In this document: positions 1 through 56,075 of the stretch, one piece after another
How the letters are laid out: every line of letters begins with the position of its first letter
Numbering within the stretch: the stretch's first letter is position 1
Source: Minisyncoccota bacterium
GTDB lineage: Bacteria; Patescibacteriota; Minisyncoccia; Phycocordibacterales; UBA9973
Direction: 5' to 3'
NCBI GenBank assembly: GCA_041666225.1
Contig: JBAYHJ010000001.1
Span: forward strand, 65,881-129,880
DNA: 64,000 bases
Notes under the pieces: generated by a model
What the model saw: the letters and a program-made list of their open reading frames with translations, nothing else
Databases searched by the model: none
Told to the model about the DNA's origin: nothing
Translations under genes and position numbers: made by a program

Positions 1-768
1 CAAAATGAATTAATAGTTAAAATTAAAGGTGGTTTTGGTAAAGATGAGGGAAATGCTCCAAATACTTCAAATGAAAACGATGAGGGAAGTAGAACAACTC
101 CATCTGGAGTATATTTACTGTCATCTGCCTCACTCCCAAGCGACATAGTAAAATATGGAAAACTAAGATATTCTCTTTTTGGTAAAACTATTTTGGGTGA
201 TAAAATAACCCTAGGGGAACATCAAACATGGCCAGATGAGTTAACAATTAGAACAGAAAAATTAAATACACCTGATCCAAAAGATAATAAATTCTCATAT
301 GGTTGTATAAACATAAGTGCGAACGATTTTGAAAAATATGTAAAACCAAACTTCAAAGGTGACTATGGGGAATTCATGTTTGTTCTTCAAGACAAAAAAG
401 GTAGAGAAAGTGGGGTTAAATTTGAAACAAAAAAACTTATTGAAAGTATTATTCCTACTATGGTTGAAATGGCAAATAAAGAAATGAATATGTATAGTAA
501 TTCAATTATTGAAATAAAAGACACTCTCAGTAAGCTTGGCGATGAAATTACAAATATTGAAGATAAATATAATAAACTGGTTAAAGAATATAAGCAAAAT
601 AAGAATGTTAATACTCAAAGAAAAATCGAGGATATTAAAAATGAAATAAAAAACAAAAAAAATGAAGTTGGGCAACTAAGAAAATTGCTAACTATATACG
701 CCGACAAGGTAAAAGGTGTAACAATTAAGCGTGATCAGGTGGAAAAAATATTGATGGAAATGGATTAG
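1..768 (+). CDS. L,D-transpeptidase (YkuD-like) catalytic-domain protein with C-terminal coiled coil; 5' partial (frame open from base 1)
   Basis: Frame 1 is open from position 1. The translation carries TPSGVYLL...KYGKLRYSLFGKTILGDKITLGEHQ...SYGCINIS, matching the YkuD TPxG...HG...SxGC[IV] pattern. The C-terminal 100 aa are K/E-rich heptad-like. Confidence 0.5.
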   Translation, partial: QNELIVKIKGGFGKDEGNAPNTSNENDEGSRTTPSGVYLLSSASLPSDIVKYGKLRYSLFGKTILGDKITLGEHQTWPDELTIRTEKLNTPDPKDNKFSYGCINISANDFEKYVKPNFKGDYGEFMFVLQDKKGRESGVKFETKKLIESIIPTMVEMANKEMNMYSNSIIEIKDTLSKLGDEITNIEDKYNKLVKEYKQNKNVNTQRKIEDIKNEIKNKKNEVGQLRKLLTIYADKVKGVTIKRDQVEKILMEMD

Positions 769-863
769 AGCACATTGACTTTTGTACTGTTTTGTGATAT
801 AATATAAAGACATGTAAGTTAAAATTTAGTACAATTAGTAAATATTATAAAAAATAAAAATTT

Positions 864-3092
864 ATGAAAGATCTAGAATCAACTCTTGGTAATTTAAACA
901 AAAATGAAAAACGACTAATAGAAATTAAAAAATCTAGAGTTGAGCTTGAAGAAAAAATGGGCGAATTAAAAGATCCAGTTGAGATAGAAAAAATCAAAAA
1001 ACAAATTGATGCACTCCATGAAGAAAAAGCGGGTATTATATCCAATTTCATAAAAACTGTTCCTGAAACACCATTCGAGGATGTTCCGAGTGAGTCGGAA
1101 AAAGTGGGGGTAGAAAAAAATAAAAAAGAGAGATTGCCTCCAAAACTTAGTTTTGAGCAATTAAAAGAAAAAATATCAAAAGGCGAAATAATAATCGACC
1201 CAAATAAATTTTCAGTTATAAAAGCAGACATTTTAGAAAATAAAAATGGAAAGCTAGTAAAAGAAAGGGAAAATCTATTAAAACAATTATCAGAAAAACA
1301 AAAGTATGATAAAAAAGAACTTTATAATTCTCTTGAATTTAGAAAAAGTTTAAATTTAGAATCAAAAAAAGATAAAAATGATCTTATTGATGGTAAAACA
1401 CTTAGTGAATATATTATGCAAATGGCAGGGAAAGAAGTTCAAAAAGAAGACAGGTATCCTGAAATAAAAGAAAGATTAAAAAATATAAAACTCTACAAGG
1501 AAGAAGAGATAAATGAAATGTCATATATTGAGTATATGAAAAAATATGAGGTTATAATTATAGAAGAAGAAAATCCAGCACAAGAAACGGTTGAGCAACC
1601 TGAAACTCAAAATATCACAGAAGAAAGTGAACCCGTTGTCACAAATGAAGAAGAAGCAGAAAAACAAAAGCAGGTAAAATTAGAACAAGAAAAAATGAAA
1701 AGAATTAATGCAGCCTTTGATAACTTTGTAAAAATTACACAAAACTACCAAAAATTAAAACAAGAACATGGTGAACTTGAAAACAAACTAAATGAATTAA
1801 TAGAGCTGAGAGAAAAGTTATTAAAGGAAAGTGAAAGCTCAAAAATAGAAAGGGAAATAACAATCGAGGAGCTGGCTGAAATACTAAAAAATAATAAGAT
1901 TGATCAAATAATTGTAGCCAGTAGTTATAACAAGAATAAAGAACTTGCTAGACTTAATCCTGATTTAGATTCACGTGGAGCTCTTTATCTATTAAACAGT
2001 TTAAATAAAAAACCAATTAATAATACATATGCTGACGGATCTATGAGTTCAGTTGTTGGGAAACGTGGCGAAGGGAAAGAGTCTGTTTTAAAAAACACTA
2101 ATGAGTTCAGCCCACTAAGTATAAATGAGAATGGAATTAAAAAAGATAATGAGGGAGAAAAAACAATAGAAAATAAACCTGGTCTAAAAATTTTTATAGA
2201 TACTGGTGGTGAATGGTTAAAAATCGAAGAAAATGGAGAGGAGAAAGTTCTTTATATTGACCACCATGGGTCAGGAAAGAGAGAGCCAACCTCTGGGACA
2301 AAAATGATATACAGAGCAATGGAAGAAGCTGTTATTCTAGAGAATAAACCTTGGGTGAAAAAATTAGTGAGGTTTATCAATGACACTGACAACTTAAGTT
2401 ATGTAGATGAGAAAGATAAATTTGGTAAAAGAATTTTTACTGAAACAAATTTCAAAGAAAACTGGCCTAGGTCTCTATATGCTCTAGCTGAAGATTATAT
2501 CCCTTTTAATAAACTTGTTGAATTATTTGAAAAAGGAACAATTAAAGATCCATCTAAACCATTCACAAAAGAAGAATTGGAAGGCGAAATCGGAAAAATT
2601 GAAACAACAGAGATGGGACATAAAAAACCCTTAAAAGATATAGTGGAGGAAATAGAAAAAAAAGTAATAGAAAATGTTGAAAGTGTAAAGAGAATAAGAA
2701 ATTATAATAGTAAAGTAGAAAAGTTGAATACTAATTCAAAAAATCTTGGGAAAATTATTTATCATAATTTTAAATGCAAATATAAAGATCCTGATGATGA
2801 AACCAAATTAAAAACAAGCATTATTGATGACAAAATGTCATTTAAGGCCATAAAGGCAATGAACGCTGATACTTATGTTGTTTGGAATAAGACAAAGGAC
2901 AAAAAATCTTTCTTCATTAATTCAAAAGATGCTGACTTGGTAGAAATTGCAAAGAGGTTAAACGAAGAAGACCCAGGTTGTGCAAAAGAAGTTCGTGGAG
3001 TATTCATATTTGGAAAAATAAATAAGCTGAGTGAGAGAAAATTCCTAGAAATACTTGACCCAGAAATAATAAAAGATGCAAAATTAAAATAA
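864..3092 (+). CDS. Large coiled-coil protein with embedded DHH-family phosphoesterase-like motifs
   Basis: 742-aa ORF. N-terminal K/E coiled coil. Motifs RLNPDLDSRGALYLL (NrnA-like motif I HxxPDxDxxGS), IFIDTGG (motif II) and LYIDHHGSG (motif III DHH). Confidence 0.45.
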   Translation: MKDLESTLGNLNKNEKRLIEIKKSRVELEEKMGELKDPVEIEKIKKQIDALHEEKAGIISNFIKTVPETPFEDVPSESEKVGVEKNKKERLPPKLSFEQLKEKISKGEIIIDPNKFSVIKADILENKNGKLVKERENLLKQLSEKQKYDKKELYNSLEFRKSLNLESKKDKNDLIDGKTLSEYIMQMAGKEVQKEDRYPEIKERLKNIKLYKEEEINEMSYIEYMKKYEVIIIEEENPAQETVEQPETQNITEESEPVVTNEEEAEKQKQVKLEQEKMKRINAAFDNFVKITQNYQKLKQEHGELENKLNELIELREKLLKESESSKIEREITIEELAEILKNNKIDQIIVASSYNKNKELARLNPDLDSRGALYLLNSLNKKPINNTYADGSMSSVVGKRGEGKESVLKNTNEFSPLSINENGIKKDNEGEKTIENKPGLKIFIDTGGEWLKIEENGEEKVLYIDHHGSGKREPTSGTKMIYRAMEEAVILENKPWVKKLVRFINDTDNLSYVDEKDKFGKRIFTETNFKENWPRSLYALAEDYIPFNKLVELFEKGTIKDPSKPFTKEELEGEIGKIETTEMGHKKPLKDIVEEIEKKVIENVESVKRIRNYNSKVEKLNTNSKNLGKIIYHNFKCKYKDPDDETKLKTSIIDDKMSFKAIKAMNADTYVVWNKTKDKKSFFINSKDADLVEIAKRLNEEDPGCAKEVRGVFIFGKINKLSERKFLEILDPEIIKDAKLK

Positions 3093-3131
3093 TAAAAGTC
3101 GAACTTAATAATAAAAAATAACAAATACAAA

Positions 3132-6128
3132 ATGACTAAAAAACCAGATTACCCACCATTAAAACTATCAGATATTGATAAAAGTATTGAGGAGACAAAA
3201 AAGGCTCTTGCAGAAAAGGGTGGATTGTTAGATGAAACAAAAACACAATTAGAAGAACAAATAAAAGTATTCGAGAGTCTAGGTGTTTCAAAAGAAAAAA
3301 TCGATGAACTTCGTAATAAAATGATAGAGAGTGAGGTTAAATCAACAACAATAGAGAAAGTTGACACAAATCCAGAAGAAAACAAAACTTCTAAAAATAA
3401 AGAACCAGTAAAAGATATTAAAGATGAAAATCTAAGGAGTGAGTATTATGATAAAGCACTTGAGATAATAACAAAAACGGGTGACACAACTTTTTCTAAT
3501 TTACAAAGAAAACTCAAGATAAGTATGGGTAAGGCAAAAAGACTACTAGAGATTCTCGAGCAAGATGGAATTCTTGGTCCGTCTATAAACGGTACCCCTA
3601 GAGAGATTTTAAAAAAAGAGGAGAAAAAAAATATAAATAGCACTGAAAAACCTGAAACTGACCAGGAAAAAGCGGCAAAGTTAAGCGATCAGATAAAAGC
3701 CGAACAGGAAGAAAGAGAGAATGCAACCAAAGGAAAAGAAAAAACAAAATATAATTTTGTTTGGGAGACAAAAACGAATCAGACAGATCAAGCTTACGGT
3801 TATTACGACTATCAAGTAGGAACTTTTCCTTTTGAAATTAACGGGGTGAAATCAGAAGTTGTAATTAGTGAGGAAAAAACAGAATGGCATGAATATTCAA
3901 GACTTAAGAAAATGGCCAGATTTGGAATGGGAGACTCTGGAAAAATAATTTTCAAAAAAAATCCATCTTGGAGTGTTTATGTAACTGATGGAAATAAAAC
4001 ATTAGACAACAAATATCCAAAAACAATATATTTTAATACAAAAGAAGAAGCTATTGAAAAAGCAAATGAAATTATAGAGGAGGGAATGAAAATTAAATTT
4101 GAGGAAGAAAAGAAATACATGGGACAAGGAGCAACTCCTCCTCCACCTCGACAAAATCAAAATAATCCAGGAACAAAAACACCAGAGCCAATTCAAAATA
4201 TTTCTCAAGAACAACTACTTAATAATTTAAACAATCTCGAAAAATTAGCTCAAGATAAATTAGACTCATCAAAATTCAGAGGCAAAATTCTAAAGGGCTT
4301 AGATAAATGGGAAAATCTTGGGAAAGGAGAAGGAAAAGCAAATTTTGCCAAAAGAATGACTAAAATTGCTCTTAATTTAGCTCTAATCGGTCTGGTTTCT
4401 TCAATTGCGGTTGATCAAATTGCTAATGCTGGAATAGAAATTGCCGGTCAAACTCTTTCAAATACCGCTTTAGCTGGCGGAACATCTCACTATTTAATTA
4501 ATAAAATGGGAATCGGACTCGGGCTTTCTGCTTCAATGGATCGTTTAGGAAATAAAATACCAAATAAAGTAAAAAAGTGGATACCTTGGGTTATGGGGGG
4601 CGGTAGTATTTTAGCTGCAGGAGTCTTATCAGGAGGAACAGTAGCTGTGGCCGCCGGTGTTGGTTTTGCTGCCTCTAAATTATTAAAAAAGAATTTTACA
4701 AATGAAAAAATTGAAGCAAAACAGGAAAATGCCAGAAAAGAATTGTTAGAAAAAATAAAAAAAGAAGGAGCTGAAATAAATCCTGAAAAAGTAAAAGCTT
4801 TTGAAAATGAATATTCTAAGTTATTAAAAAAATACGAAAACCAAAAAATATGGGGTAAGTTGTGGGGTACAGCGGCAAGATTTGGCTTGGCGACAATTGT
4901 TAGTACTGTAACTCTAGAAGCTGCAGGATATGCTAAAGATATGCACGCAGAACATCAAGCAAATGTTGAAAAACCAGTAGAAGAAGCGAAAGCTGTCGAA
5001 GATCAAAGCAACACTTCGCAAAATGATTCAATTTCAGAAAAACAAAATGAAATAATTAAATCCGATTCAACTGAAAATAAAACACCTATTTCTGATACAA
5101 CAGATATGACCAAAGAATCTGATACCACAACTTCACAAATTGAAAATACTCAGACACCACAAACAGCAGAGGGTAATATAACACAAAGTGGTAATATCCA
5201 AGAATTTATGAAATCAAGTGCCACACAAGATGCTATAAAACTTGGTATGTATACTCCGGGTGAGGCAAATGAAAGTATGATTGTCCAATCAGGAACAGTT
5301 TCATTTGATGCAAATGGCCATCACGTCGAAGTTCCATATAGTTCAGATGGAGCAATTCAAACAATCGCCGATTTGAAAGAAAAAATGATTGCAGAATTTG
5401 GTGGTGAAGAAAAAATCCCAGAAGGAAATATGACAACTCATTATGTTGACATGAATGGAGCAGAGCATGATCAATCTCTAATACACAATGATACAAATGG
5501 AGTAGAAGTTATTGAAAAATATAATGGAACAATGTTTGATTCAGACCACTCTCATGCAACAGTTGAACATTCTGCTCACGATAGTCTCTCTGATGATAAT
5601 AAAGTGCCAGAGCAAATAAATCATGAAACAGGTGAACCAATGGATAATAACACTGGAAATAATTCAGAAACACAAACCAATGAATCTACAACCCCTAAAC
5701 AAGTAAATCCTAAGACAGGACTACCTATGGACAACAAGGGGGATAATTCGCAAGCTGATAACAAAAACAATTTATCAAATAATGGCAATGAAAATACCAC
5801 TATTTTATCGACCGAAAAGTTAGAACATGTCCACAAAGTTTTTAATCATAATATTGATCATTTATTTGGAGAAAGACCTATAAGTGCTTGGAGTTACATA
5901 AAAGACCATGTTTCTGCAACAAGAATAATGGAAATGTATAAAGAGGGTGAAATAAAAGAAGACTTTAAGCCGCTTACTCATTATATGAACCAATTACAAA
6001 ATATTACCGGAATAAGGCCACAAGGAGTTGACCTATTACACCCTGATCCAGAAACAATTCCTCATTATATTGGTCGGGCACTAGAAGAAGCAGAGCGAAC
6101 TGGTCAAATAGGTAAAGTTACATTATAA
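3132..6128 (+). CDS. Giant membrane-associated protein with FtsK-gamma-like winged-helix segment, Gly-rich TM/amphipathic core and T/S/N/D-rich C-terminal half
   Basis: 998-aa ORF. Residues ~105-150 read YYDKALEIITKTGDTTFSNLQRKLKISMGKAKRLLEILEQDGILGP, close to the FtsK gamma consensus (SxLQRxLxIGxxRAxRxxxxLExxGIVGP). Hydrophobic G/A-rich segments at ~400-520. Confidence 0.45.
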   Translation: MTKKPDYPPLKLSDIDKSIEETKKALAEKGGLLDETKTQLEEQIKVFESLGVSKEKIDELRNKMIESEVKSTTIEKVDTNPEENKTSKNKEPVKDIKDENLRSEYYDKALEIITKTGDTTFSNLQRKLKISMGKAKRLLEILEQDGILGPSINGTPREILKKEEKKNINSTEKPETDQEKAAKLSDQIKAEQEERENATKGKEKTKYNFVWETKTNQTDQAYGYYDYQVGTFPFEINGVKSEVVISEEKTEWHEYSRLKKMARFGMGDSGKIIFKKNPSWSVYVTDGNKTLDNKYPKTIYFNTKEEAIEKANEIIEEGMKIKFEEEKKYMGQGATPPPPRQNQNNPGTKTPEPIQNISQEQLLNNLNNLEKLAQDKLDSSKFRGKILKGLDKWENLGKGEGKANFAKRMTKIALNLALIGLVSSIAVDQIANAGIEIAGQTLSNTALAGGTSHYLINKMGIGLGLSASMDRLGNKIPNKVKKWIPWVMGGGSILAAGVLSGGTVAVAAGVGFAASKLLKKNFTNEKIEAKQENARKELLEKIKKEGAEINPEKVKAFENEYSKLLKKYENQKIWGKLWGTAARFGLATIVSTVTLEAAGYAKDMHAEHQANVEKPVEEAKAVEDQSNTSQNDSISEKQNEIIKSDSTENKTPISDTTDMTKESDTTTSQIENTQTPQTAEGNITQSGNIQEFMKSSATQDAIKLGMYTPGEANESMIVQSGTVSFDANGHHVEVPYSSDGAIQTIADLKEKMIAEFGGEEKIPEGNMTTHYVDMNGAEHDQSLIHNDTNGVEVIEKYNGTMFDSDHSHATVEHSAHDSLSDDNKVPEQINHETGEPMDNNTGNNSETQTNESTTPKQVNPKTGLPMDNKGDNSQADNKNNLSNNGNENTTILSTEKLEHVHKVFNHNIDHLFGERPISAWSYIKDHVSATRIMEMYKEGEIKEDFKPLTHYMNQLQNITGIRPQGVDLLHPDPETIPHYIGRALEEAERTGQIGKVTL

Positions 6129-8465: not shown

Positions 8466-8496
8466 CCCCATGTCCAGGCCTTGCCTGGACATGGGG
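8466..8496. repeat. REP-like GC-clamped palindrome copy a (ccccaTGTCCAGGC-ctt-GCCTGGACAtgggg)
   Basis: Perfect 14-bp stem with a 3-nt loop, immediately after the helicase stop. It is the reverse complement of copy d. Confidence 0.85.
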
Positions 8497-8515
8497 GATG
8501 GATTATAATTAGTTT

Positions 8516-9184
8516 ATGTCTATTCGTGCAACACCTTTTGTTTGTGATGAGTATTATCATATTTACAACCGTGGAGTAAACAAGATGAAAATATTCATAA
8601 ATCATAGCGATTATGATCGTTTTTTAAAGTTATTATATTCAATAAATAATACCACTTTGACAAAATTCTCAGATATTGAAACAAGTCCAGGCAAGGCTTG
8701 GACATTTGAGAGAGATGAAACACTAGTTGATATTGGAGCATTTTGTCTTATGCCAAATCATTTTCATTTACTTTTAAAAGAAAAAAATGAGGGTGGAATT
8801 ACAACTTTTTTACACAGATTAGCAACTTCATATTCTACATATTTTAATAAAAAATATAACCGTAATGGTTCTGTGTTTCAAGGAAAATTTAAATCTGAGT
8901 ACATAAACAATGATCGTTATTTAAAATATTTATTTTCATATATTCATTTAAATCCAATAAAACTTGTACAAAAGGATTGGAAAGAAAAGGGGGTAAATAA
9001 TATAAATAAAACAAAACAATATTTGAATAAATATAAATATTCTAGTTATGTTGATTATAAAAATGAAAAAAGAAAAGAATCAAAAATTCTTAATCCATCA
9101 GTTTTCCCAAATTATTTTCCAACAACAGAAAAATTTGAGAAAGAAATTTTTGAATGGCTAAATTATAACAACTATGATAAATAA
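8516..9184 (+). CDS. IS200/IS605-like HUH Y1 transposase, REP-associated (RAYT-like)
   Basis: YHIYNRGVN near the N-terminus, HuH motif in LMPNHFHLLL, and later Y-containing motifs (YLKYLFSYIHLNP). The gene is flanked by inverted copies of the palindrome. Confidence 0.6.
   Translation: MSIRATPFVCDEYYHIYNRGVNKMKIFINHSDYDRFLKLLYSINNTTLTKFSDIETSPGKAWTFERDETLVDIGAFCLMPNHFHLLLKEKNEGGITTFLHRLATSYSTYFNKKYNRNGSVFQGKFKSEYINNDRYLKYLFSYIHLNPIKLVQKDWKEKGVNNINKTKQYLNKYKYSSYVDYKNEKRKESKILNPSVFPNYFPTTEKFEKEIFEWLNYNNYDK
8684..8705. repeat. REP-like palindrome copy b (aGTCCAGGCAAGGCTTGGACAt), inside the transposase CDS
   Basis: Same core with one G-T wobble; in-frame, encoding SPGKAWT. Confidence 0.75.
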
Positions 9185-10046
9185 ATATAAGAATAAAATA
9201 CAAACTAATATCAAAGCAAATGTCCAGGCAAGGCTTGGACATGTTCATAGTGCAAAGAAATCACTGGGGCAAAATTTTTTAAAATCGAAACCCGTACTTA
9301 AAATGATGTGTAAAGCAGGTAGTGTTGTAAGTAGTGATGTTATTTTAGAAATCGGACCAGGTAAAGGGGCTCTGACTAGTAACCTTTTATTGGGAGCTAG
9401 AAAAGTTTTAGCTATTGAAAAAGATAATGAACTATTTGAATTCCTGAAAGAAAAATTTGCAAGTGAAATAAAAAATAAAACACTTCAATTAATACACGAA
9501 GATATTTTAAACTTAGAAGTAAAAAAATTTGGACTTAAGAAAAATGAATATAAAATAATTGCAAATATCCCATACAATATTACTGGGGCAATATTTAAGA
9601 AATTTTTATCAAATGAGACACAACCAAAGACAATGATTCTACTTGTTCAAAAAGAAGTTGCTGAAAGAATTGTTGCTAAAAATAAAAAAGAAAGTATCTT
9701 ATCCTTAAGTGTCAAAGCTTACGGGGAACCTAAATATATAATGAAAGTGGAGAAGAGATTTTTCTCTCCTGCTCCAAAAGTAGATTCTGCTATTATTGCA
9801 ATAACTAATATTTCTAAGAAAAACTTCGCATCGGAAATAGAAGAAATTAATTATTTTAATATAATCAAGGCTGGTTTTGCCCACAAAAGAAAAATTCTAT
9901 GTAAAAACCTAACATCTGTCCAGGCAAGGCCTGGACAAGTGGGGAGGATTTTTGAAAAATTAAAAATTAATCCAAAAGCTCGGGCTGAGGATATAAAAAT
10001 TGAAAATTGGCTTGAAATATCTCGTCTTTTATCCACAGATATTTAG
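9174..10046 (+). CDS. rsmA: 16S rRNA (adenine1518/1519-N6)-dimethyltransferase RsmA/KsgA
   Basis: SLGQNFL at the N-terminus, SAM-binding EIGPGKGALT, NIPYNIT, and a C-terminal KsgA-like tail. The start is uncertain: ATG 9174 overlaps the transposase gene end. Confidence 0.85.
   Translation: MINKYKNKIQTNIKANVQARLGHVHSAKKSLGQNFLKSKPVLKMMCKAGSVVSSDVILEIGPGKGALTSNLLLGARKVLAIEKDNELFEFLKEKFASEIKNKTLQLIHEDILNLEVKKFGLKKNEYKIIANIPYNITGAIFKKFLSNETQPKTMILLVQKEVAERIVAKNKKESILSLSVKAYGEPKYIMKVEKRFFSPAPKVDSAIIAITNISKKNFASEIEEINYFNIIKAGFAHKRKILCKNLTSVQARPGQVGRIFEKLKINPKARAEDIKIENWLEISRLLSTDI
9221..9241. repeat. REP-like palindrome copy c (TGTCCAGGCAAGGCTTGGACA)
   Basis: Downstream of the transposase stop, inside the rsmA N-terminal region (encodes VQARLGH). 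Confidence 0.8.
9917..9937. repeat. REP-like palindrome copy d (TGTCCAGGCAAGGCCTGGACA), inside rsmA
   Basis: Perfect 9-bp arms. In-frame, encoding SVQARPGQV; followed by agtgggg. Confidence 0.8.
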
Positions 10047-10076: not shown

Positions 10077-10144
<68 letters not shown>

Positions 10145-14199: not shown

Positions 14200-16527
14200 A
14201 TGGAAAATCAACCAAGAAAAAGTAAAGCGTTCATAATTACAATCATAGCTATTGTATTGCTTTTGGTGGCTGGATATTTCCTATACAAGAGTGCAAAAAA
14301 TTCTTCCTCGACAAATATTATTTCAAGAATTTTCTCTCCATTAAGTTCTTCAAATAATTCGAAGGGCATCTCGGCTCAAGCAGGGGAAGACATAAAACAA
14401 GGTGACCAAGTATACACGGCAAGTACAAATACAAATGGTAACCCGATCGTTATGAAAGTTGTAGGAAGTGGAGCACTGAGTTCCGACAAAGTATTGGGAA
14501 TTGCCATTGGTAATATAAATAACGGAGAATTTGGAAGAGTTGAATTTAATACTCCGGGTTCAAATAGTTTCCTAGATTCTTTTTCAAATTTTATAAATGA
14601 TTTATTTACAGGCAACACTGGCAGTGGTGGTACTGGTACAGGAGGAAATGGTACTGGGGGTAATGGAACGGGTGGTGAATATTTACAAGTATGTAGTGAC
14701 ACTTTAGACAATGACTCTGATGGATTGATAGATACTCTCGATCCACAGTGCCACACCGATGGTGATGCTACAAATGCTAGTTCATATGCACCTACACATT
14801 ATTCTGAATTAAATTCACCTGGAGGTGGAGGTACTGGTGAATACACAGTACAGTGTAACGACAAAATAGACAATGATGCCGATGGATTGATTGACGCACT
14901 TGATCCACAGTGCCACGTTGATGGTGATTTAGCAAAAACATATATCCCAACTCATTATTTAGAAGCATCTTTACCAGGAGGTGATTATAAAATGCAGTGT
15001 AATGACACTTTAGACAATGATTCTGACGGATTGATAGATACTCTTGACCCACAGTGCCACACCGATGGTGATGCTACAAATGCTAGTTCATATGCACCTA
15101 CACATTATTCTGAATTAAATTCACCCACAGGTATATGTGCAAACGGAGCGACAAATTACCCAATTTGTACTATTGATATACCAGCGGGCCAACCCGACTT
15201 AACAGCAGGAAGGGTCACTCCTATTAGTGCCACGATCGATACTCCAACAACTCTTTCCTCTATCATTACAAATGAAGGAGATGGAGCAACTGGATATAAT
15301 TTCTCAGGCTTGTTCACAATTATAAAAAATTCTGACACAAATAGCACAACGACAAATGGTGCTGTTTCTAAGTCAATAATTAAAAATTTCATAGCTCGTA
15401 TTTTAAATAAAATATCTTGGATATCTAAAGCTATCGCATCAAATGAAATCGAGTACAGTGTCGTAGTTCCAGCTCTTTCGCCAAAAACAGGAAATGTGGC
15501 AACTGTCTCATATACTTTCAATTCCACGGGGACATACAATATCCGAGCCTGTGCAGATAAAAGATACTCAAGTGACACAGGAATAATTCCAGAATCAAAT
15601 GAGGACAATAATTGTGGACCGTGGGTCACCCTTACTGTCTCTGGATCATTGCCACCTCCTGGAGAAGAGTGTGCAAATGGAGCGACAAATTATCCTTTAT
15701 GTATCCTTGGCGATGATACACTTACACAGTGTAGTGATACCATAGATAATGATGGCGATAGTAAAATAGATGAATTAGACCCAAATTGTCATACAGATGG
15801 TGATTTGACAAAAGCATATCTAAGAGATCATGATTCTGAAGCCACTTCAACAATAACAGAAATAATTGAAGAAAATAAATGCCTACTGATAGAACAAAAT
15901 CCACTTATCTTTACTGATACAGAAAAAGCAAAATTGGCTGAGCTTCTACGTAAATTTTACTTAATATCATCCACCCTAAGGACAGAAGAAGACATCGTGG
16001 CAGTATATAGTGAGATAGACCAATATAAAAATTTTATCGCCCAAACAGACGATCTAATAGGTAGGTGTTATAAAGAAGTTGCTATTGTACAAAACAAGGG
16101 TGGTGGTGGAGGGTGGGTTAGAAATGGTAATCCTTGGTATCGAAAAGAAAAAGGGGGAACAGCCCCATATGGAGGAAATGGAATTTACACAGATTTTAAT
16201 ATTTTAGAGGGCAATGAGGGAAGAGTATATCAAGATGGAAAAGGTCCTGGGTGTAAGGCTGTGTCTGGTTATTTTTATGGTGGAAACCTTCTAAAAGATG
16301 CCATAATACATTATCCTCCAGCAGATGGTGGTGATGTAGTGGTTGGATATGCTGGGGCTAGTTGTGATTCAGTCAATACACAACCTTTCGATTGTTATCA
16401 AGTGAATAGTACTCTTTATGGGAATAACACTAATCTCCTTAAAAAAGAAGCACTGTTAGGTGCTGGGTGTAAGTGGAAAGAAGGAGTTTACCTTGATGGA
16501 GTAGAGAGAATTCTGGAGATTTGGTAG
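14200..16527 (+). CDS. Membrane-anchored surface protein with GTGGNG repeats and four thrombospondin-type-3-like (DxDxDGxxDxxDPxC) repeats
   Basis: N-terminal TM. Four C(S/N)DT(L/I)DNDxDGLIDxLDPQCH modules, two of them about 95% identical at the DNA level (14696-14826 vs 14998-15128). Confidence 0.5.
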   Translation: MENQPRKSKAFIITIIAIVLLLVAGYFLYKSAKNSSSTNIISRIFSPLSSSNNSKGISAQAGEDIKQGDQVYTASTNTNGNPIVMKVVGSGALSSDKVLGIAIGNINNGEFGRVEFNTPGSNSFLDSFSNFINDLFTGNTGSGGTGTGGNGTGGNGTGGEYLQVCSDTLDNDSDGLIDTLDPQCHTDGDATNASSYAPTHYSELNSPGGGGTGEYTVQCNDKIDNDADGLIDALDPQCHVDGDLAKTYIPTHYLEASLPGGDYKMQCNDTLDNDSDGLIDTLDPQCHTDGDATNASSYAPTHYSELNSPTGICANGATNYPICTIDIPAGQPDLTAGRVTPISATIDTPTTLSSIITNEGDGATGYNFSGLFTIIKNSDTNSTTTNGAVSKSIIKNFIARILNKISWISKAIASNEIEYSVVVPALSPKTGNVATVSYTFNSTGTYNIRACADKRYSSDTGIIPESNEDNNCGPWVTLTVSGSLPPPGEECANGATNYPLCILGDDTLTQCSDTIDNDGDSKIDELDPNCHTDGDLTKAYLRDHDSEATSTITEIIEENKCLLIEQNPLIFTDTEKAKLAELLRKFYLISSTLRTEEDIVAVYSEIDQYKNFIAQTDDLIGRCYKEVAIVQNKGGGGGWVRNGNPWYRKEKGGTAPYGGNGIYTDFNILEGNEGRVYQDGKGPGCKAVSGYFYGGNLLKDAIIHYPPADGGDVVVGYAGASCDSVNTQPFDCYQVNSTLYGNNTNLLKKEALLGAGCKWKEGVYLDGVERILEIW

Positions 16528-16529
16528 TT

Positions 16530-16625
16530 TGAATTAATTAAGAATTAATAATTAAGAATTAAGAAGGGGGAGTAGTAAGGAAAAAAGTAATTAAGAATTA
16601 AAAATTACGAATTAAGAATTGGGAA
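16530..16625. repeat. AT-rich dispersed intergenic repeat cluster (AATTAAGAATTAATAATTAAGAATTAAGAA ... TAATTAAGAATTAAAAATTACGAATTAAGAATTGGG)
   Basis: Built from the AATTAAGAATT / TAATAATTA(C/A)GAATT units that recur at 20571, 21036-21137, 32386, 61641, 62626 and 63301. Confidence 0.7.
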
Positions 16626-16654
16626 AGTACGAGAAAAGAGAAAAAATAAATAGG

Positions 16655-19570
16655 ATGAAAAGATTTTTACCATACATTTTAATATTGACGATTCTAGTGC
16701 AACTCCTTGCGCCTTTTAGTGTTGGCAGTGGAGTGAAAATTAATAAAGCCGAAGCAGCAGATTGTGTAATTAATGATGTTTTATTTAATCCTCTTACGGC
16801 ACTGCCAGACAAAAAACCAACCAGTGTAACTCTTCATATTTGGACGAGTGGTTGTGCTGGGCAAATAATTAGTGGACTAGGTCTTAATTTAAAAGATGAG
16901 GGGAAAAACTCTGTTTTATTGGTAGTTCCACGACAGGGGATAGTTTTAGATAAATTTTCTTTTCAATTAAAAACAGGGGAATACGGTTGTGGTACTGATA
17001 AAAAATGTGAAAATGTATCTGTTGATTTTACTATTATTGACAACAAGGGAGCAGTCTTGGCTACATATTCCTCAACTCAAGGTGGCTCAAAAAGAGACGA
17101 CGGAGCAGACATTATGTCTTATTTGTGTACAAAAAATGGAACAGAGTCTGATTGTAATAATACTGAGAAGTGGGAGTTTGTTTCTTCTGTTGGAACTGAT
17201 CAATCTGTTGGAGGTGCGACTACAACAGAAAAAGATGTTTGGTATTTTGAAAGTAAAAATGCAACAGGGGTTGTTGTTTTTACTTCAACAGAATATTCAT
17301 CTATTGAAACATGTACATTGGAAAGTGATGATAGGGCAAAAAATTTTAAAGATGAAAAAGTAGGTGATTGTGTATCAAAAAAAGTTGTTGTTGTTCGTGG
17401 TAATGAAGAAACACTTAATGATACAGATTCAAATCCATTGGACTGTGGAATAAGAAATTTTAAAGGCTGTGTGGCAATGGTTCCATATTATTTATTATTT
17501 GTACCAACTTCAGCGGTTTTCACAATAGCAGGGAAAATGCTTGATTTTACTTTGGGGTATTCTATTCAGGATAAATCATATCGTTCAACATTTGTTGTTG
17601 AAGGATGGGGAATTGTTCGAGACTTTTGTAATATGTTCTTTATTTTCATTTTGCTTTATATTGCTTTTGGAACTATTTTAAATCTTCACAGTGTTAAAAC
17701 AAAAGAAATGATTATAAATGTTGTAATCATTGGGCTTTTAATAAACTTTAGTTTATTTGCCACACAAGTAATTGTTGACGCTTCAAATATATTGACGCGG
17801 GTGTTTTATAATTCAGAGACAATCAAAATAGTTGAAAAGAATGCAGATGGAACAATCAAAGAACCTGTTCCTGGTAGTTATATAAAACTTTCTGAAGCTA
17901 TTGTCTCAAAAGTAAATCCCCAAGAACTAGTTTTGAGGGCTGGTACTGTTGGTTACATACAAGATAAAGGGGGTTTGTCTACACCCCCAGAAGCAGGAAA
18001 AATTGGTCTTGGTACGCTTATTTTAGTTATATTACTTGCAACAGCGGTAAACATTGTTGGAATAATAGTATTCGTATCTGTCTCTTTGATTTTCGTGACA
18101 AGAGTTATTGGGCTTTGGCTTGCTATGATATTTTCTCCTTTTGTATTTTTCAGCTACACCGTTCCATCATTGCAAGACATGGAAATGGTTGGTTGGAAAA
18201 AATGGTGGCCAGAAACTTTAAAACTTGCTTTTCTGGCTCCTGTTTTTATGTTTTTTATGTATCTAATTGTTAAGTTTTTGAATCTAAAACTTGATATTAT
18301 AAATACCACGGGGAAATCTGGGCCGGATTTCGTTGTTTCAATATTATTACCATTTGCTTTTATAATGATACTTCTCTGGAAAGCAAAAGATATTGCCAAA
18401 GACATGTCTGGTAAAATGGGCCAAACAATAACAAACGGAATTGCTGCTGCAGGAGGAATTGCACTGGGTGGAGCTGCATTGGGAACAGCAGTGTTGGGAA
18501 GAAGGGTAATTGGACAGACAATGGCAAAAGCATCAAGGGGAGATACTGCTACGCAGAAATACCAAGCTGCATTAGGAGATCCAGCAGCTATGGCTAAATT
18601 AACTAATTGGCAGAAACTAAAAGGAGGTGTTGGTTCAGCAGTAGGAATGGGTAAGGTCTATGGTACTGATAAGGGTAATATTGACCCACTAACAGGTAAA
18701 CCTATTGGGGTTGAGGGTGGTATTGGTGGGGCTCTAAATAAAAAACAGAAAGCTGTTGGGGATGTAGATAGTGCTCGACACAAAGAAGATGAATTAAAGA
18801 AAGCAAGTGGATTAGAAGGTGTTGATAACAGTAAACTATCTGGTAATGATATTAACACGATGGAAGGTAAGTTTAAAGAAACAGAACGATCTAATGCAGA
18901 AGCTGCCGCAAGAAAGGGAGTTGACGCTAAAGGAAAAGCAATATCAATAGAAGATGATAAAGGAATTTCATATCGAGGTGAAGAAGAATTCAAAAAAGCA
19001 AAGATGGAAAAGATGATACAAGACAGAAAAGACCTTGGAAATGATGATGATTTTGTAAAAGAAAAGGTAAGAGATAAAAAGGGTAATGTTATTAGAGAAG
19101 AAAGAACAGATCAATTAAAACCTGAAATATTAGACGGCATCAAGAATGAATTAAATATTAAATTAAGTGCTGCTGTTAAAATAGCTGCTGACAATAAACT
19201 TGTTGAGGACTTTGGTAAAATGAGAGAAAACGCCTCAAAACACGTCAACCCAATTAACAGAGTAATTGCTGGATCAAATAAATATAGTTATGACGCTAGA
19301 AAATTATCTGATATCAAATCAGATAAAAGAGAGGGGTTCTTTGCAAAAGTCCCAGTCGCTCTTATAGCGGGTATCGCAACAGGTGTTAGAGCTGGTATAA
19401 AAAATATTGGGCTAAGCAATGGAGGTGTAAAAGTTGAAGGTAATTTTATGAAAGATTTAGGAAATACAATTAGTGATTCATTAAAGAGTATGAAGGTTAA
19501 TGTAGACCTAAGCCATGTTGGAGAAACAAAAAGTAGTGCCGATGCACATGCAGGAGGAGCACATCATTAA
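16655..19570 (+). CDS. Large polytopic membrane protein, possible VirB6/TrbL-like T4SS channel component with long extracytoplasmic N-domain and G/K-rich C-tail
   Basis: Signal peptide MKRFLPYILILTILVQLLAPFSV, a ~290-aa Cys-containing domain, then six or more hydrophobic helices between aa ~290 and 620. The ATG at 16655 was chosen over the TTG at 16619. Confidence 0.35.
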   Translation: MKRFLPYILILTILVQLLAPFSVGSGVKINKAEAADCVINDVLFNPLTALPDKKPTSVTLHIWTSGCAGQIISGLGLNLKDEGKNSVLLVVPRQGIVLDKFSFQLKTGEYGCGTDKKCENVSVDFTIIDNKGAVLATYSSTQGGSKRDDGADIMSYLCTKNGTESDCNNTEKWEFVSSVGTDQSVGGATTTEKDVWYFESKNATGVVVFTSTEYSSIETCTLESDDRAKNFKDEKVGDCVSKKVVVVRGNEETLNDTDSNPLDCGIRNFKGCVAMVPYYLLFVPTSAVFTIAGKMLDFTLGYSIQDKSYRSTFVVEGWGIVRDFCNMFFIFILLYIAFGTILNLHSVKTKEMIINVVIIGLLINFSLFATQVIVDASNILTRVFYNSETIKIVEKNADGTIKEPVPGSYIKLSEAIVSKVNPQELVLRAGTVGYIQDKGGLSTPPEAGKIGLGTLILVILLATAVNIVGIIVFVSVSLIFVTRVIGLWLAMIFSPFVFFSYTVPSLQDMEMVGWKKWWPETLKLAFLAPVFMFFMYLIVKFLNLKLDIINTTGKSGPDFVVSILLPFAFIMILLWKAKDIAKDMSGKMGQTITNGIAAAGGIALGGAALGTAVLGRRVIGQTMAKASRGDTATQKYQAALGDPAAMAKLTNWQKLKGGVGSAVGMGKVYGTDKGNIDPLTGKPIGVEGGIGGALNKKQKAVGDVDSARHKEDELKKASGLEGVDNSKLSGNDINTMEGKFKETERSNAEAAARKGVDAKGKAISIEDDKGISYRGEEEFKKAKMEKMIQDRKDLGNDDDFVKEKVRDKKGNVIREERTDQLKPEILDGIKNELNIKLSAAVKIAADNKLVEDFGKMRENASKHVNPINRVIAGSNKYSYDARKLSDIKSDKREGFFAKVPVALIAGIATGVRAGIKNIGLSNGGVKVEGNFMKDLGNTISDSLKSMKVNVDLSHVGETKSSADAHAGGAHH

Positions 19571-19581
19571 AAAAACAAATT

Positions 19582-20184
19582 ATGGATCAAACACAATTAC
19601 AACAAAATATCGCTAAATACTATGCAAAACTTCCTAGTGATTTACAGCAATCTTTTTCGAGTATGGCCTGGATGGAAGATTTAAAAAATATTAGTACTAA
19701 ATATTCTCTTACCAATGAACAAACTGAGACCCTAGCAACAGAAACAACACTAGTTTTACTTGGTATTGTTCATCTGGAAGATTATGTTTTGACTCTTAAA
19801 AATGATTTAAAATTAAATGACGAAACTTTTAATAAAATATTAGATGATTTAGACGCAAATATTCTAAAAGACACCAAAGATGATCTTGTTAAAACATTTG
19901 AGTTAAATATTGAATTATTGGAAAAAGAAAATAGTAATAAAGAAAAAGAAATAATTAAAACAAATGAAGATGAAGTACCATTGCCACCATACGCAGAAGT
20001 AATTAAGAATGACGAATTACCAATTACAAAAGTTGAAATACCTAAGGGAATAGAAGTAAAACCAGAAATTAGTATTGCTCCGAAAAATATTTTTGAAGAA
20101 AAAATGAAAGGAGCAACAGTAAGCACTCAAACCGTTTCTGATTATTCTGTCACAAAAAAAGATCCATATAGAGAGGAGTTCTAA
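19582..20184 (+). CDS. Hypothetical protein
   Basis: 200-aa ORF, tightly packed in the operon. Confidence 0.4.
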   Translation: MDQTQLQQNIAKYYAKLPSDLQQSFSSMAWMEDLKNISTKYSLTNEQTETLATETTLVLLGIVHLEDYVLTLKNDLKLNDETFNKILDDLDANILKDTKDDLVKTFELNIELLEKENSNKEKEIIKTNEDEVPLPPYAEVIKNDELPITKVEIPKGIEVKPEISIAPKNIFEEKMKGATVSTQTVSDYSVTKKDPYREEF

Positions 20185-20570: not shown

Positions 20571-20610
20571 ATAATTATTAATTCTTAATTATTAATTCTT
20601 AATTAATCCA
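20571..20610. repeat. AT-rich dispersed repeat, reverse orientation (ATAATTATTAATTCTTAATTATTAATTCTTAATTAATCC)
   Basis: Reverse complement of the AATTAAGAATTAATAATTAAGAATT unit. Confidence 0.7.
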
Positions 20611-21035: not shown

Positions 21036-21140
21036 AATTAATAATTAGGAATTAAGAATTAAGAATTGGGCTAAAAAGTATGATATAATATTAGTAGTTA
21101 TGAATTCTTAATTCCTAATTATTAATTCTTAATTATTTAA
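21036..21140. repeat. Inverted pair of the AT-rich repeat (AATAATTAGGAATTAAGAATT ... AATTCTTAATTCCTAATTATT) flanking a TGATATAAT -10-like core
   Basis: Arms of about 22 bp at 21044-21066 and 21105-21127. The 36-nt centre contains gTATGATATAAT. Confidence 0.65.
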
Positions 21141-32388: not shown

Positions 32389-32431
32389 TAATAATTAAGA
32401 ATTAATAATTACGAATTAATAATTATAATTC
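32386..32431. repeat. AT-rich dispersed repeat copy (TAATAATAATTAAGAATTAATAATTACGAATTAATAATTA)
   Basis: Same units as 16530 and 62626. Confidence 0.65.
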
Positions 32432-49521: not shown

Positions 49522-50153
49522 TATATATTCTCTTTGGTAATGATACAAAGAAAAAAAATGTTTATTTAAAAAGGTTATATAAAAATAATCAACCAATTTT
49601 TATTCCCGTGCGTGAATTATCAAAAGAAATGTTTTTTGACCAAGCACAAAGTGTAAGTTTATTTGGCGAACAGTCTATTTTCGTTTTTGAAAATTTCATT
49701 GGAGATAAAGATTTTGAATTAAAAGATGAGGAGATCTCACATTTAAAAGATTCACAAAATATTTTTATTTTCAAAGAAGATAAATTACTTGCCCCGGATT
49801 TAAAAAAATATAAAAAACATGCAACAATAGAAGACTTAAGTTCAGCAGTAATAAAACAAACACCGAAAATAAATGTTTTTGGCATTGCCGATGCATTTGC
49901 ACGAAAAGATAAAATTCAAACATGGGTTTTGTTTAGAGAGGCAGTTTCCGCTGGTGTTGCACCCGAAGAAGTTTCTGGAATTTTATTTTGGAAAATAAAA
50001 ACAATGATATTAAATAGCACAAAGGTTTTCACTAGTGATGAGCTTAAAAATAGATCAAGTGAGCTCGTTTCTATTTATCATAAAGCACACGGCGGGGAAA
50101 TTGATTTTACTATCGGGCTTGAGCAGTTTATCTTAAATTCATTAAATAAATAA
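49512..50153 (+). CDS. Possible DNA polymerase III delta subunit (HolA-like, short)
   Basis: YILFGND...SLFGEQSIFVFEN near the N-terminus and a helical C-domain; weak similarity. Confidence 0.35.
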   Translation: MDMIYILFGNDTKKKNVYLKRLYKNNQPIFIPVRELSKEMFFDQAQSVSLFGEQSIFVFENFIGDKDFELKDEEISHLKDSQNIFIFKEDKLLAPDLKKYKKHATIEDLSSAVIKQTPKINVFGIADAFARKDKIQTWVLFREAVSAGVAPEEVSGILFWKIKTMILNSTKVFTSDELKNRSSELVSIYHKAHGGEIDFTIGLEQFILNSLNK

Positions 50154-50484
50154 TTTAGACAAAAAGAAAAGGCTTGGAAGTTGAACCTCAAAAATTTGAG
50201 AACCAGCTTCCAAGCCTTTGGCTTTATTAGAAACAAAGAACGACTCACGAATAATAATGTGAGTATAAATGTGCTAAATAATGATTATATATCTTTCCCG
50301 ATATTAATATCCCAATACATAGGGAGAATGTTGGAAAGATTATTTCAAATACGTCTTAATTACATTATATAATAAAACTGGGGATAAGCAAAGACATAAG
50401 GGGATAACTTTCATACCCCATATTTATAGGTGTTGATTTTTAAGCATAAATGTGGTATTTTTGATAAATCGTGCTATTTAATAT

Positions 50485-50557
50485 CCTCTCGTAGCTCAGT
50501 TGGTAGAGCAGCTCCCTTTTAAGGAGATGGTCGTAGGTTCGATTCCTACCGAGAGGA
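50485..50557 (+). tRNA. tRNA-Lys (anticodon UUU)
   Basis: Acceptor CCTCTCG/CGAGAGG, D-arm GCTCagttggtaGAGC, anticodon loop cuUUUaa, T-arm GTAGGttcgattCCTAC; no encoded CCA. Confidence 0.85.
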
Positions 50558-50605
50558 CAAGAATAAAAACCTTAAGAAATTGAGGTTTTTATTCTTGTCC
50601 TCTCG
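50550..50605 (+). terminator. 23-bp perfect inverted repeat hairpin (includes the tRNA 3' acceptor strand)
   Basis: CGAGAGGACAAGAATAAAAACCT-10nt-AGGTTTTTATTCTTGTCCTCTCG. Confidence 0.5.
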
Positions 50606-50749
50606 AGCAAGCAAACTGCTTTGCTTGCGTGTAGGAAGTGAAAAGCTTTTCAGTAAATATGAGCATTTATGCGAATATTTTTGAAAAGGTGTACTGGTTA
50701 TGTAATGACCGATAAGAGTACTCGCTGTCCTATAGAACCTAACCCAGAC

Positions 50750-50791
50750 AGGAATCGAACTTTTGTGTATTTCTGATATAATTTGATTATG
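50750..50791 (+). promoter_or_regulatory. Conserved 42-nt promoter cassette copy 1 (GAATCGAAC...TATTTCTGATATAAT-N6-ATG), leaderless-type
   Basis: Aligns column by column with copies at 54031 and 55175. Confidence 0.55.
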
Positions 50792-51277
50792 GAAAATTTA
50801 TCAATAAAATCAAAAGAAATAATAGAGAAAATTGAGTATCTTAATTTGGCTACTATTACACCAGAAGGGTTACCTTGGAATAGCCCAGTATATTGTTCTT
50901 TTGATAAAGACCTTAATTTCTATTGGTTATCTTGGAAAGAAAACCAACATTCAAAAAACATAAGAAACAATGAAAATGTTTATGTGACAATTTATGACTC
51001 AACAATATTTTCGGGAACTGGGATTGGTGTTTATTTTCAAGGCAAAGCATATGAATTAAGTAATCCTATAGACATAGTTAAAGGTTTAACTCATCATTAT
51101 GGAAGAAGTAAAAAGAAAATAAAAGATGTAATAATGTTTCTTACTTCATACCCAAGGAGAGTTTATAAATTTGTTCCAGAAAAAGCTTGGATTAATGGCG
51201 AAGGAGAAATAAACGGTAATTACATAGATACTAGAACAGAGTTAGATTTAGAGGAATTAAAGAAAATGATTAAATAA
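50789..51277 (+). CDS. Pyridoxamine 5'-phosphate oxidase-like FMN-binding split-barrel protein (general stress protein 26-like)
   Basis: LNLATITPEGLPWNSPVYCSFDKDLNFYWLS...NVYVTIYD. Confidence 0.45.
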   Translation: MENLSIKSKEIIEKIEYLNLATITPEGLPWNSPVYCSFDKDLNFYWLSWKENQHSKNIRNNENVYVTIYDSTIFSGTGIGVYFQGKAYELSNPIDIVKGLTHHYGRSKKKIKDVIMFLTSYPRRVYKFVPEKAWINGEGEINGNYIDTRTELDLEELKKMIK

Positions 51278-51281
51278 TTTT

Positions 51282-51881: not shown

Positions 51882-51887
51882 AACAAT

Positions 51888-52502: not shown

Positions 52503-52507
52503 ATATT

Positions 52508-52930
52508 ATGTTAAAAGTAGATTTTTACAATTTAGGAGAAATAAAAGATAGTGATCTTTCTTTTTCTGTGATTACAGCTATACATAATAGTAAATGGGTA
52601 TTTACCAAACATAGGAAAAGAGATACTTGGGAAACACCAGGTGGAAAAAGAAATGAATCTGAAAGTATTGATGAATGTGCTTCCAGAGAATTAATTGAAG
52701 AAACAGGAGCCGATAAATTCAGTTTAATTCCTTTATGTATTTATTCAGTTGAGAAAGAAGACAAAAAAGATTTTGGGCAGATATATTATTCCGAAATTGA
52801 TAATTTTAATGAATTACCTGATTTTGAGATGGAAAAGATAGAATTTTTTGATAAATTACCAGATAAACTAACTCATCCGTTAATTGAGTCACTTATATTT
52901 AAAAAGGTTTTAGAGATTCTAGGTAAATAA
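52508..52930 (+). CDS. NUDIX hydrolase
   Basis: Nudix box GGKRNESESIDECASRELIEETGA. Confidence 0.7.
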   Translation: MLKVDFYNLGEIKDSDLSFSVITAIHNSKWVFTKHRKRDTWETPGGKRNESESIDECASRELIEETGADKFSLIPLCIYSVEKEDKKDFGQIYYSEIDNFNELPDFEMEKIEFFDKLPDKLTHPLIESLIFKKVLEILGK

Positions 52931-52931
52931 T

Positions 52932-53969: not shown

Positions 53970-54030
53970 TAAAAATCCTATTATATAATCTATTCAAAAC
54001 AGGTCTTTGTTCTGAGAACTCAAGCTCAAC

Positions 54031-56065: not shown

Positions 56066-56075
56066 TAAAGAATTT

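Follow-up and report, generated by a model that had tools for sequence, protein, structure and literature searches.

In a 64-kb stretch of the genome of a Minisyncoccota bacterium (NCBI assembly GCA_041666225.1, contig JBAYHJ010000001.1, forward-strand positions 65,881 to 129,880; referred to here as the window, from which coordinates are counted), a gene for a Y1/HUH protein lies between inverted copies of a short GC-rich hairpin. The protein resembles the tyrosine transposases associated with repetitive extragenic palindromes (REPs), known as RAYTs. Gene and hairpin probably form a REPtron-like module of a Parcubacteria genome within the candidate phyla radiation (CPR), in which a vertically inherited RAYT-type Y1/HUH endonuclease/ligase of single-stranded DNA (ssDNA) is paired with a cognate hairpin. 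The observations that carry this reading are the association of gene and hairpin across relatives, their covariation, the inverted orientation of the flanking copies, the dispersal of the hairpin in a related genome, presence/absence differences between orthologs, a conserved promoter, and the fold and motifs of the protein.

Hairpin Copies and the Y1/HUH Gene in the Window

The hairpin core is a 21-mer, TGTCCAGGC-AAG-GCYTGGACA, which occurs at four sites within 1.5 kb (8471-8491, 8684-8704, 9221-9241, and 9917-9937), in agreement with a sequence-only reading of the same DNA. A pattern scan and a scan for all GC-rich hairpins yielded no fifth copy in the window. Dinucleotide shuffles of the window gave 0 matches to the 21-mer against six strand-matches observed, and the 8-mer GTCCAGGC is confined, within the window, to the four hairpin elements. 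The GC content ranges from 0.28 to 0.37 across the window and is about 0.30 near the Y1 locus. The gene, the hairpins, and the neighboring gene that hosts two of them are listed below.

8466..8496, core 8471-8491, plus strand: upstream hairpin with a 14-bp stem; the perfect 21-mer is on the minus strand, so that the loop reads CTT on the plus strand.
8516..9184, plus strand: Y1/HUH gene, RAYT-like, 222 amino acids (aa), with the HUH motif N81-H82-F83-H84, the tyrosine motif Y142-IHLNP, and a helical tail of about 70 aa bearing YSSY.
8684..8704, plus strand: internal hairpin with one mismatch (A at the first base), in frame in the Y1 gene, encoding SPGKAWT.
9221..9241, plus strand: downstream hairpin, exact 21-mer with loop AAG, in the 5′ coding extension of rsmA, encoding VQARLGH.
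9917..9944, core 9917-9937, plus strand: rsmA-internal hairpin, exact 21-mer encoding SVQARPGQ, followed by an AGTGGGG extension to 9944.
9174..10046, plus strand: rsmA/ksgA (16S rRNA dimethyltransferase; TIGR00755, 221.9 bits against a cutoff of 171), host of two copies.

The upstream hairpin, whose stem has the full 14 bp that the sequence-only reading had given as the maximum, lies 5 bp past the stop codon of uvrD/pcrA and 20 bp ahead of the Y1 ATG. Together with the downstream hairpin it brackets the open reading frame (ORF) 8516-9184 in opposite loop orientation (CTT at 8471-8491, AAG at 9221-9241), again as had been proposed. Three of the four copies are located inside ORFs, namely that at 8684 in the Y1 gene and those at 9221 and 9917 in rsmA. 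The internal copy corresponds to a surface loop of the Y1 protein between helix 30-42 and strand 71-79. The first 11 bp of rsmA are shared with the end of the Y1 gene, and rsmA has no in-frame start codon after the downstream hairpin at 9221-9241.

The Y1/HUH Protein and Its Family

The translated ORF carries the motifs YHIYNRG, NHFH (HUH), VFQGKFKS, YIHLNP, and YSSY, and it scores 34.8 bits against Pfam PF01797 (Y1_Tnp), above the curated gathering score of 23; because of a long loop at residues 43-70, the alignment is limited to residues 71-144. Residues H82, H84, Y138, and Y142 are invariant in an alignment of 33 homologues, and the tyrosine motif is of the class-2 Y---NP form (YIHLNP), that is, RAYT-type. 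A sequence-profile search of the PDB was marginal, with 4ER8 at E = 0.37 and YIHLNPvk aligned to its YIYINPVK, so a fold comparison was needed to settle the Y1 identity. Using an AlphaFold model with a mean pLDDT (predicted local distance difference test) of 90.6, this comparison placed 4ER8 first (E = 9.8e-07), followed by the ISDra2, IS608, and IS200 transposases, the top 23 matches all being Y1 transposases. 4ER8 is E. coli TnpA_REP, a REP-associated tyrosine transposase, bound to a REP hairpin. The earlier assignment to the Y1 transposases, made from the HUH and YHIYNRG motifs, is thereby corroborated by both the PF01797 score and the best structural match. ORF 8516-9184 is accordingly modeled with a Y1 fold and intact catalytic motifs, and catalysis is predicted.

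Relatives of the protein are numerous, with more than 7,500 found in a search of about 5.8 billion proteins and at least 7,500 protein clusters at 90% identity. The best 120 relatives all measure about 215-255 aa and are 53-89% identical to the window protein; where these are named, only Parcubacteria, Nomurabacteria, Zambryskibacteria, Paceibacteria, and Minisyncoccia appear. This bears out the CPR-like setting that had been proposed, as does a gene order matching that of the Parcubacteria genome RAAC4_OD1_1. Plasmid-borne relatives from other, non-CPR phyla reach at most 35% identity. One homologue bears the JGI label 'RayT' via COG1943, so the annotation of the gene is not in itself new.

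Association of Hairpin and Gene across Relatives

The relation between gene and hairpin was followed across 83 loci with homologues 45-89% identical, 80 of them metagenomic (45-56% identical) and 74 with both flanks. Identity to the window protein is 89% for L001 (to L005), 67% for L006 (to L008; RAAC4_OD1_1 / DPIZ01), 65% for L011, and 61% for L018. The 21-mer is found upstream of, within, and downstream of the orthologous gene in L001, where the internal copy has decayed, and unchanged in L006, and the same three-site arrangement recurs in L011 and L018 with some copies variant. The upstream copy has the same position and orientation in L001, L006, L011, and L018. Both flanking copies of L011 carry a compensatory double change, TGCCC...GGGCA, with pairing kept.

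Within 80 bp on either side of the gene, the density of perfect GC-rich hairpins (7 bp or longer) across the 83 loci is 6.61 per kb, compared to 0.29 per kb elsewhere, a 23-fold enrichment; of the 74 loci for which both flanks are available, 58 contain one or more hairpins there. A 12-mer or longer is common to both flanks in 53 of these 74 loci, against 149 of 5402 mismatched locus pairs. The inverted orientation also recurs: upstream copies show CTT in 18 cases and AAG in 1, and downstream copies AAG in 14 and CTT in 4. When 76 distinct hairpins are centered on the loop, the apex reads A-G-G (71, 63, and 73 of 76, respectively), then a 5-nt loop YCTTG, then C-C-T, and all four Watson-Crick pair types are used at stem positions 6-9. 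The hairpin is a near-universal apex, AGG-YCTTG-CCT, on lineage-specific covarying stems; its foot reads (T/A)GTCC, with an optional extension CCCCAC...GTGGGG.

To avoid circularity, pairing was assessed in 24 upstream regions picked solely by the apex motif. Within these, 86.7% of stem cells pair, compared to 61.7% after shuffling and 33-48% with slid partners, and the covariation score of 0.648 against 0.174 was reached in 0 of 500 shuffles. Co-evolution of the protein with a structure, or with a dyad site, would be expected to give such a pattern.

One arm is directly repeated beside the hairpin in 5 of 41 upstream hairpins, the left arm in L060, L064, L084, and L106 and the right arm in L068, as exemplified by TAGCTAGGtcttcTAGCTAGGtcttgcctagcta just upstream of the Y1 gene in L060. 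These repeats could have been left behind when DNA was cut and rejoined at the loop, or could stem from replication slippage. The contig of L084 holds two hairpin families: GTGCGAAGGGTGGCCCTTCGCAC flanks its Y1 gene, and about 820-860 bp upstream lies the pair CCGGAGGACCGGCCTCCGG / CCGAAGGCCCGTCCTTCGG, also seen in the flanks of the L068 Y1 gene.

Inheritance of the Gene and the Insertion Sequence Alternative

The order uvrD-Y1-rsmA is shared, within about 20 kb of conserved gene order, by L001-L005 and L006-L008, and is thus kept down to 67% protein identity. The window has one copy of the Y1 family, and no second copy was found in any fetched locus. A distant paralogue, 28% identical, is encoded at 432-797 on the minus strand of L031 (genome CAYIBP01); it adjoins a giant ORF of more than 2,200 aa in which the hairpin core occurs twice, in identical repeated segments encoding PEPLSPGKAWTGEEVD (L031/L042). 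The synteny was also tried as a family-wide feature and fails beyond the close clade, with uvrD upstream in 0 of 60 loci and rsmA downstream in 0 of 55. In L070 (704-4657), only about 130 bp separate the neighboring uvrD and rsmA genes, and the Y1 gene is situated about 550 bp downstream of rsmA, so the same neighborhood exists with the Y1 gene in a different slot.

These data bear on the proposal that the locus is an autonomous insertion sequence (IS) of the IS200/IS605 type, with the Y1 protein as transposase, the flanking hairpins as ends, and solo hairpins as remnants or miniature derivatives. The Y1/HUH fold is common to both, IS608 and ISDra2 TnpA being the next structural matches after 4ER8, and the hairpins bracket the gene tightly, one lying about 20 bp ahead of it and the other at its stop codon. 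Homologues of 45-56% identity that do not lie between uvrD and rsmA (L070 among them) further suggest a unit that relocated at deep time scales. However, an autonomous element of this kind fits poorly with a single copy in 64 kb, with the 28% paralogue of L031 as the only further relative in the fetched loci, and with synteny held across 67-100% protein identity. The tyrosine motif is Y---NP and not the Y---Q of TnpA_IS200, the 222-aa protein with its C-terminal tail is unlike the short, core-only TnpA_IS200, the flanking hairpins are inverted and not on the same strand, no tnpB is adjacent, and the family is conserved at full length, about 55% identical across many CPR lineages. A point of likeness is that the tnpA promoter of IS200/IS605 elements lies within the left end. 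Taken together, the insertion sequence proposal appears improbable.

A Putative Promoter Built into the Upstream Hairpin

The upstream hairpin of the window contributes to a promoter-like site.

8481..8509, plus strand: putative sigma-70-type promoter of the Y1 gene, with -35 TTGCCT at 8481-8486, a 17-nt spacer, -10 TATAAT at 8504-8509, 6 nt, and the ATG at 8516.

The -35 box is formed by the loop and right arm of the hairpin, and TTGCCT-17-TATAAT is the best promoter-like site in the region, with 10 of 12 matches. The TATAAT-N6-ATG promoter that had been called from the sequence is confirmed, with TATAAT at 8504-8509, and this architecture is conserved family-wide: a -10-like hexamer stands 4-9 nt (mode 6) before the start codon in 65 of 81 loci compared to 242 of 1625 control ATGs, and a -35 box with at least 4/6 matches is present in 35 of 81 loci compared to 43 of 1625 controls, TTGCCT itself in 23. 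By eye, no Shine-Dalgarno sequence was seen between the -10 box and the ATG in the window and close relatives. Given this and the -10/ATG spacing, a leaderless mRNA is the natural reading, the transcription start itself being putative. Since the upstream hairpin carries the -35 box, it would also offer a plausible route to autoregulation by the Y1 protein. At its end the hairpin's right arm has TGGACA, a 5/6 match to the -35 consensus (window 8476, 9922, and 9932), and a scan pairs this hexamer with -10-like hexamers on both strands; each copy might offer weak outward promoters. An antisense promoter from the downstream copy was considered and dropped, since inspection by eye revealed no convincing -10 box at a suitable distance in the window.

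A further proposal is that the palindrome is chiefly a cis-regulatory or structural element (promoter/operator, terminator, or mRNA stabilizer) read by RNA polymerase or a dimeric DNA-binding protein, and is not moved by the Y1 enzyme, its copies elsewhere having another origin. The upstream apex is indeed the -35 box of a conserved promoter, several intergenic copies of relatives, flanked by A- and T-runs, resemble bidirectional intrinsic terminators of the form aaaaAGTCC...GGACTtttt (L016, L018, L019, L023, L025, L028, and L035), and the covariation does not distinguish a hairpin from a dyad-symmetric duplex binding site. Left unexplained, however, are the same 21-mer in frame in murD, argS, xerC/D, yraN, and rsmA, the conserved apex of downstream and internal copies that do not serve the Y1 promoter, and the covariation of the element with an enzyme family whose solved relatives bind ssDNA hairpins. 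A purely regulatory palindrome is therefore considered rather unlikely, and a regulatory role is in any case compatible with mobilization by the Y1 protein.

Dispersed and In-Frame Copies

A pattern scan for GTCCAGGCAAGGCYTGGAC in 185,579 species genomes returned 34 stretches. RAAC4_OD1_1, a single contig of 693,530 bp, contains 12 exact cores at seven places, five of the cores being at the Y1 locus and the dispersed ones having no Y1 gene nearby, and the core is also present in seven other CPR assemblies. As regards the genome-wide count that the sequence-only reading had put forward as a check, the palindrome is confined to the one locus within the window and is dispersed in the related genome. 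About 14 of the 34 stretches, from GC-rich Pseudomonas, Actinomyces, and similar organisms, were set aside as a conserved coding site or chance, unrelated to the CPR hairpin system. Two loci binned as Actinomycetota (L017 and L026, 35-40% GC) carry the exact core in near-identical flanks; with a GC content far below that of Actinomycetota, they may instead be CPR contigs that were binned wrongly.

About 19 of 34 exact-core copies in CPR loci are in frame within real genes, comprising rsmA, murD, xerC/D (at the same site in two genomes), argS, a yraN-family gene, the giant ORF, and the Y1 gene. With so many copies intragenic, the term 'extragenic' does not apply. The 21-mer core is seven codons long without a stop in any of the six frames, and all six translations are observed: (C/S)PGKAWT, VQARPG, SRQGLD, CPGLAWT, VQALPG, and SRPCLD. 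In rsmA, copies are located at three different sites in different genomes; the site after VAERI(V/C) has one copy in L040 (+5 codons) and two in L006 (+25 aa), and no copy in the window, L001, L011, or L070. The murD gene of L037 has two hairpin units and is 12 aa longer than that of L091. At the internal Y1 site, the loop is flipped in L018 (CTT, CPGLAWT) relative to the others (AAG, SPGKAWT). Family-wide, the internal copies recur in the C-terminal tail and at two loops, one before strand beta-2 and the other just after the HUH strand, where 6-14 residues are added.

The copy at 9917 was considered as a fresh insertion, which was not upheld, as the L001 ortholog has the same length and retains a PGQ relic; it may have arisen by insertion, overwriting, or differential decay. 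This equal length is in keeping with coincidence, in which the intragenic copies would represent a conserved peptide motif and the flanking ones chance GC-rich palindromes. It is also in keeping with coincidence that the closest homologues retain SPGKAWT and that, across the family, the position of its W is commonly occupied by an aromatic residue. Coincidence is nevertheless extremely improbable in view of the shuffled windows without a match, the use of six frames of one 21-mer in unrelated proteins, the loop flipped at the same site in L018, and the family-wide enrichment and covariation.

Proposed Mechanism and Points against It

In the REPtron-like module favored here, the hairpin that precedes the Y1 gene by about 20 bp (its loop reading CTT in the coding direction) is matched by an inverted copy at or just past the stop codon, with further in-frame copies in the gene and its neighbors. 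The Y1 protein probably recognizes the folded hairpin in ssDNA through the AGG / YCTTG / CCT apex. It would then cut and rejoin DNA at the hairpin, occasionally copying or relocating it, mostly nearby, which would result in a small and slowly turning-over hairpin population (4 copies here and 12 in the 693-kb relative). Because the core is stop-free and seven codons long, it would survive within the coding sequence of gene-dense genomes. That the Y1 protein binds and cleaves the hairpin, and causes its spread, is inferred by analogy with E. coli TnpA_REP (PMC8266576, PMC3479197).

Several observations weigh against this explanation. The hairpins of the window and the family lack a GT[AG]G guide, and the check for conserved tetranucleotides in their flanks, as proposed in the sequence-only reading, found none. 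The protein scores only 46.2 bits against the NCBIfam RAYT equivalog NF047646 (REP_Tyr_transpos), below the cutoff of 80. Covariation in a perfect palindrome fits a dyad-symmetric double-stranded site equally well, extrusion of the hairpin being presumed, and promoter function could account for part of the apex conservation in upstream copies, where apex and -35 box overlap. All four window copies are within 1.5 kb of the gene, dispersal being seen only in relatives, and copy numbers are tiny compared to those of classical REPs. The internal copy of L001 has decayed through synonymous changes, hence not all internal copies are maintained; the 9917 copy entails no gain in length over its L001 ortholog, which keeps only the PGQ relic; and distant homologues in other gene contexts indicate that the gene moved at deep time scales. 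The REP-RAYT signature claimed from the sequence alone is supported, with qualifications: the link between gene and palindrome holds over 83 loci, with dispersal in RAAC4_OD1_1, but the missing GT[AG]G guide, the score below the NCBIfam RAYT cutoff, the low copy number, and the many intragenic copies make the system REP/RAYT-like and not canonical.

Relation to Known Systems

REPtrons, in which TnpA_REP/RAYT genes are combined with REPs or REPINs, have been reported in E. coli, Pseudomonas, and Stenotrophomonas (Nunvar 2010, Bertels & Rainey 2011, Ton-Hoang 2012, Corneloup 2021 PMC8266576). The CPR module shares with them a Y1/HUH gene that is probably vertically inherited and is seen in one copy wherever sequence is available, inverted cognate palindromes in its flanks, the presence of the palindrome elsewhere in the genome (in the relative), protein-hairpin co-evolution, and 4ER8 as best structural match. 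It differs in that the apex AGG-YCTTG-CCT is conserved and not the foot, without a 5′ GT[AG]G guide, in its 4-12 copies instead of tens to hundreds, about half of them intragenic, and in a protein at most 35% identical to the non-CPR plasmid relatives, with its own C-terminal tail of about 70 aa and a score below the NCBIfam RAYT cutoff.

By motif comparison alone, the protein is also akin to TnpA_Y1 subclass 2.1 (Quentin et al. 2018, PMC6006769), equivalent to Bertels Group 1 and reported without REP-like hairpins nearby, and to the TIRYT proteins of TIRtrons, whose inverted repeats share the motif GGGGWSAS (Di Nocera et al. 2013, PMC3733652). Common features are NH[YF]H, FQ, Y[IV]HLNP, and the SS tail, a length of about 220-240 aa, and inverted repeats that bracket the gene. 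In contrast to subclass 2.1, the CPR flanks are self-complementary hairpins, and GGGGWSAS is absent from the window copies on either strand. In subclass 2.4 of Cyanobacteria and Bacteroidetes, REPs occur in frame within the tnpA_REP gene itself (PMC6006769). This is reminiscent of the in-frame cognate hairpins of the CPR Y1 gene, including one hot spot between the HUH and tyrosine motifs; the subclass 2.4 REPs, however, are long or double-foot with GT[AG]G, the motifs are WQ and YIxNNP, and the CPR family has a second hot spot before strand beta-2. REPs inside genes have already been described (PMC3733652, PMC6006769), as have atypical hairpins for subclasses 2.6 and 3 and inverted-repeat TIRtrons for subclass 2.1.

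As with intragenic REPs and Rickettsia palindromic elements (RPEs), in-frame palindromes are tolerated in essential genes of the CPR genomes, where short peptide segments are added in loops. RPEs, reportedly described by Ogata in 2000, are short palindromic repeats in frame in essential genes of a reduced genome, adding loop peptides. They are longer, at about 100-150 bp, and are not known to have a cognate transposase, whereas the CPR unit measures 21 nt and is linked to a Y1 gene.

Other Features of the Window

Downstream of rsmA, an ORF starts at 10147, and the gap at 10078-10144 is filled by a perfect tandem array of the 7-mer AGAAAGT (9.6 copies). Other AT-rich 7-mer arrays (AATTAAG, TAATTAT, AATTCTT, TAATAAT, and TAATTCG) are found at 16536-16620, 20572-20605, 21036-21067, 21103-21134, 32389-32430, and 63323-63355; such arrays could act as slippage-prone regulatory spacers. 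A 144-bp tandem repeat lies within coding sequence at 14849-15125. Strong positive GC skew (0.19-0.30) characterizes positions 1-4000, 16001-20000, and 50001-58000, with an AT skew of 0.31 in 1-4000.

Significance

No description of REP/RAYT systems in CPR was found in the searchable literature, which leaves most subscription-journal papers outside its reach; one 2026 preprint mentions only a K07491 annotation near archaeal rbcL. Features not found described are the CPR host, a 2.1-like protein with true hairpins, an apex-conserved hairpin without guide, a promoter built into the hairpin, and a very low, largely intragenic copy number. The module thus looks like a distinct version of the REP/RAYT systems of Proteobacteria.

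REP/RAYT systems serve as the textbook example of how a domesticated transposase coexists with non-autonomous repeats of its own, and work on them has been confined almost entirely to Proteobacteria, whose genomes offer intergenic space. The CPR version indicates that such a system can persist on a handful of copies in very small, gene-dense genomes, that recognition may depend on the hairpin apex rather than on a GTAG guide, and that the repeats can be housed within essential genes. Of practical use are a conserved promoter architecture in organisms for which experimental genetics hardly exists, a defined pair of protein and DNA that lends itself to biochemistry, and a metagenome marker of strain-level change.

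A more far-reaching interpretation is offered only tentatively, as its probability is clearly lower: throughout Parcubacteria/Paceibacteria, one Y1/HUH family may keep private miniature hairpins, recognized by their apex without a 5′ guide, which double as its own promoter and which, for want of almost any intergenic space, reside largely inside essential genes as seven-residue in-frame cassettes. If true, the REP/RAYT relationship would exist in CPR bacteria in an intragenic form, from which the loops of their housekeeping proteins would repeatedly draw variation.

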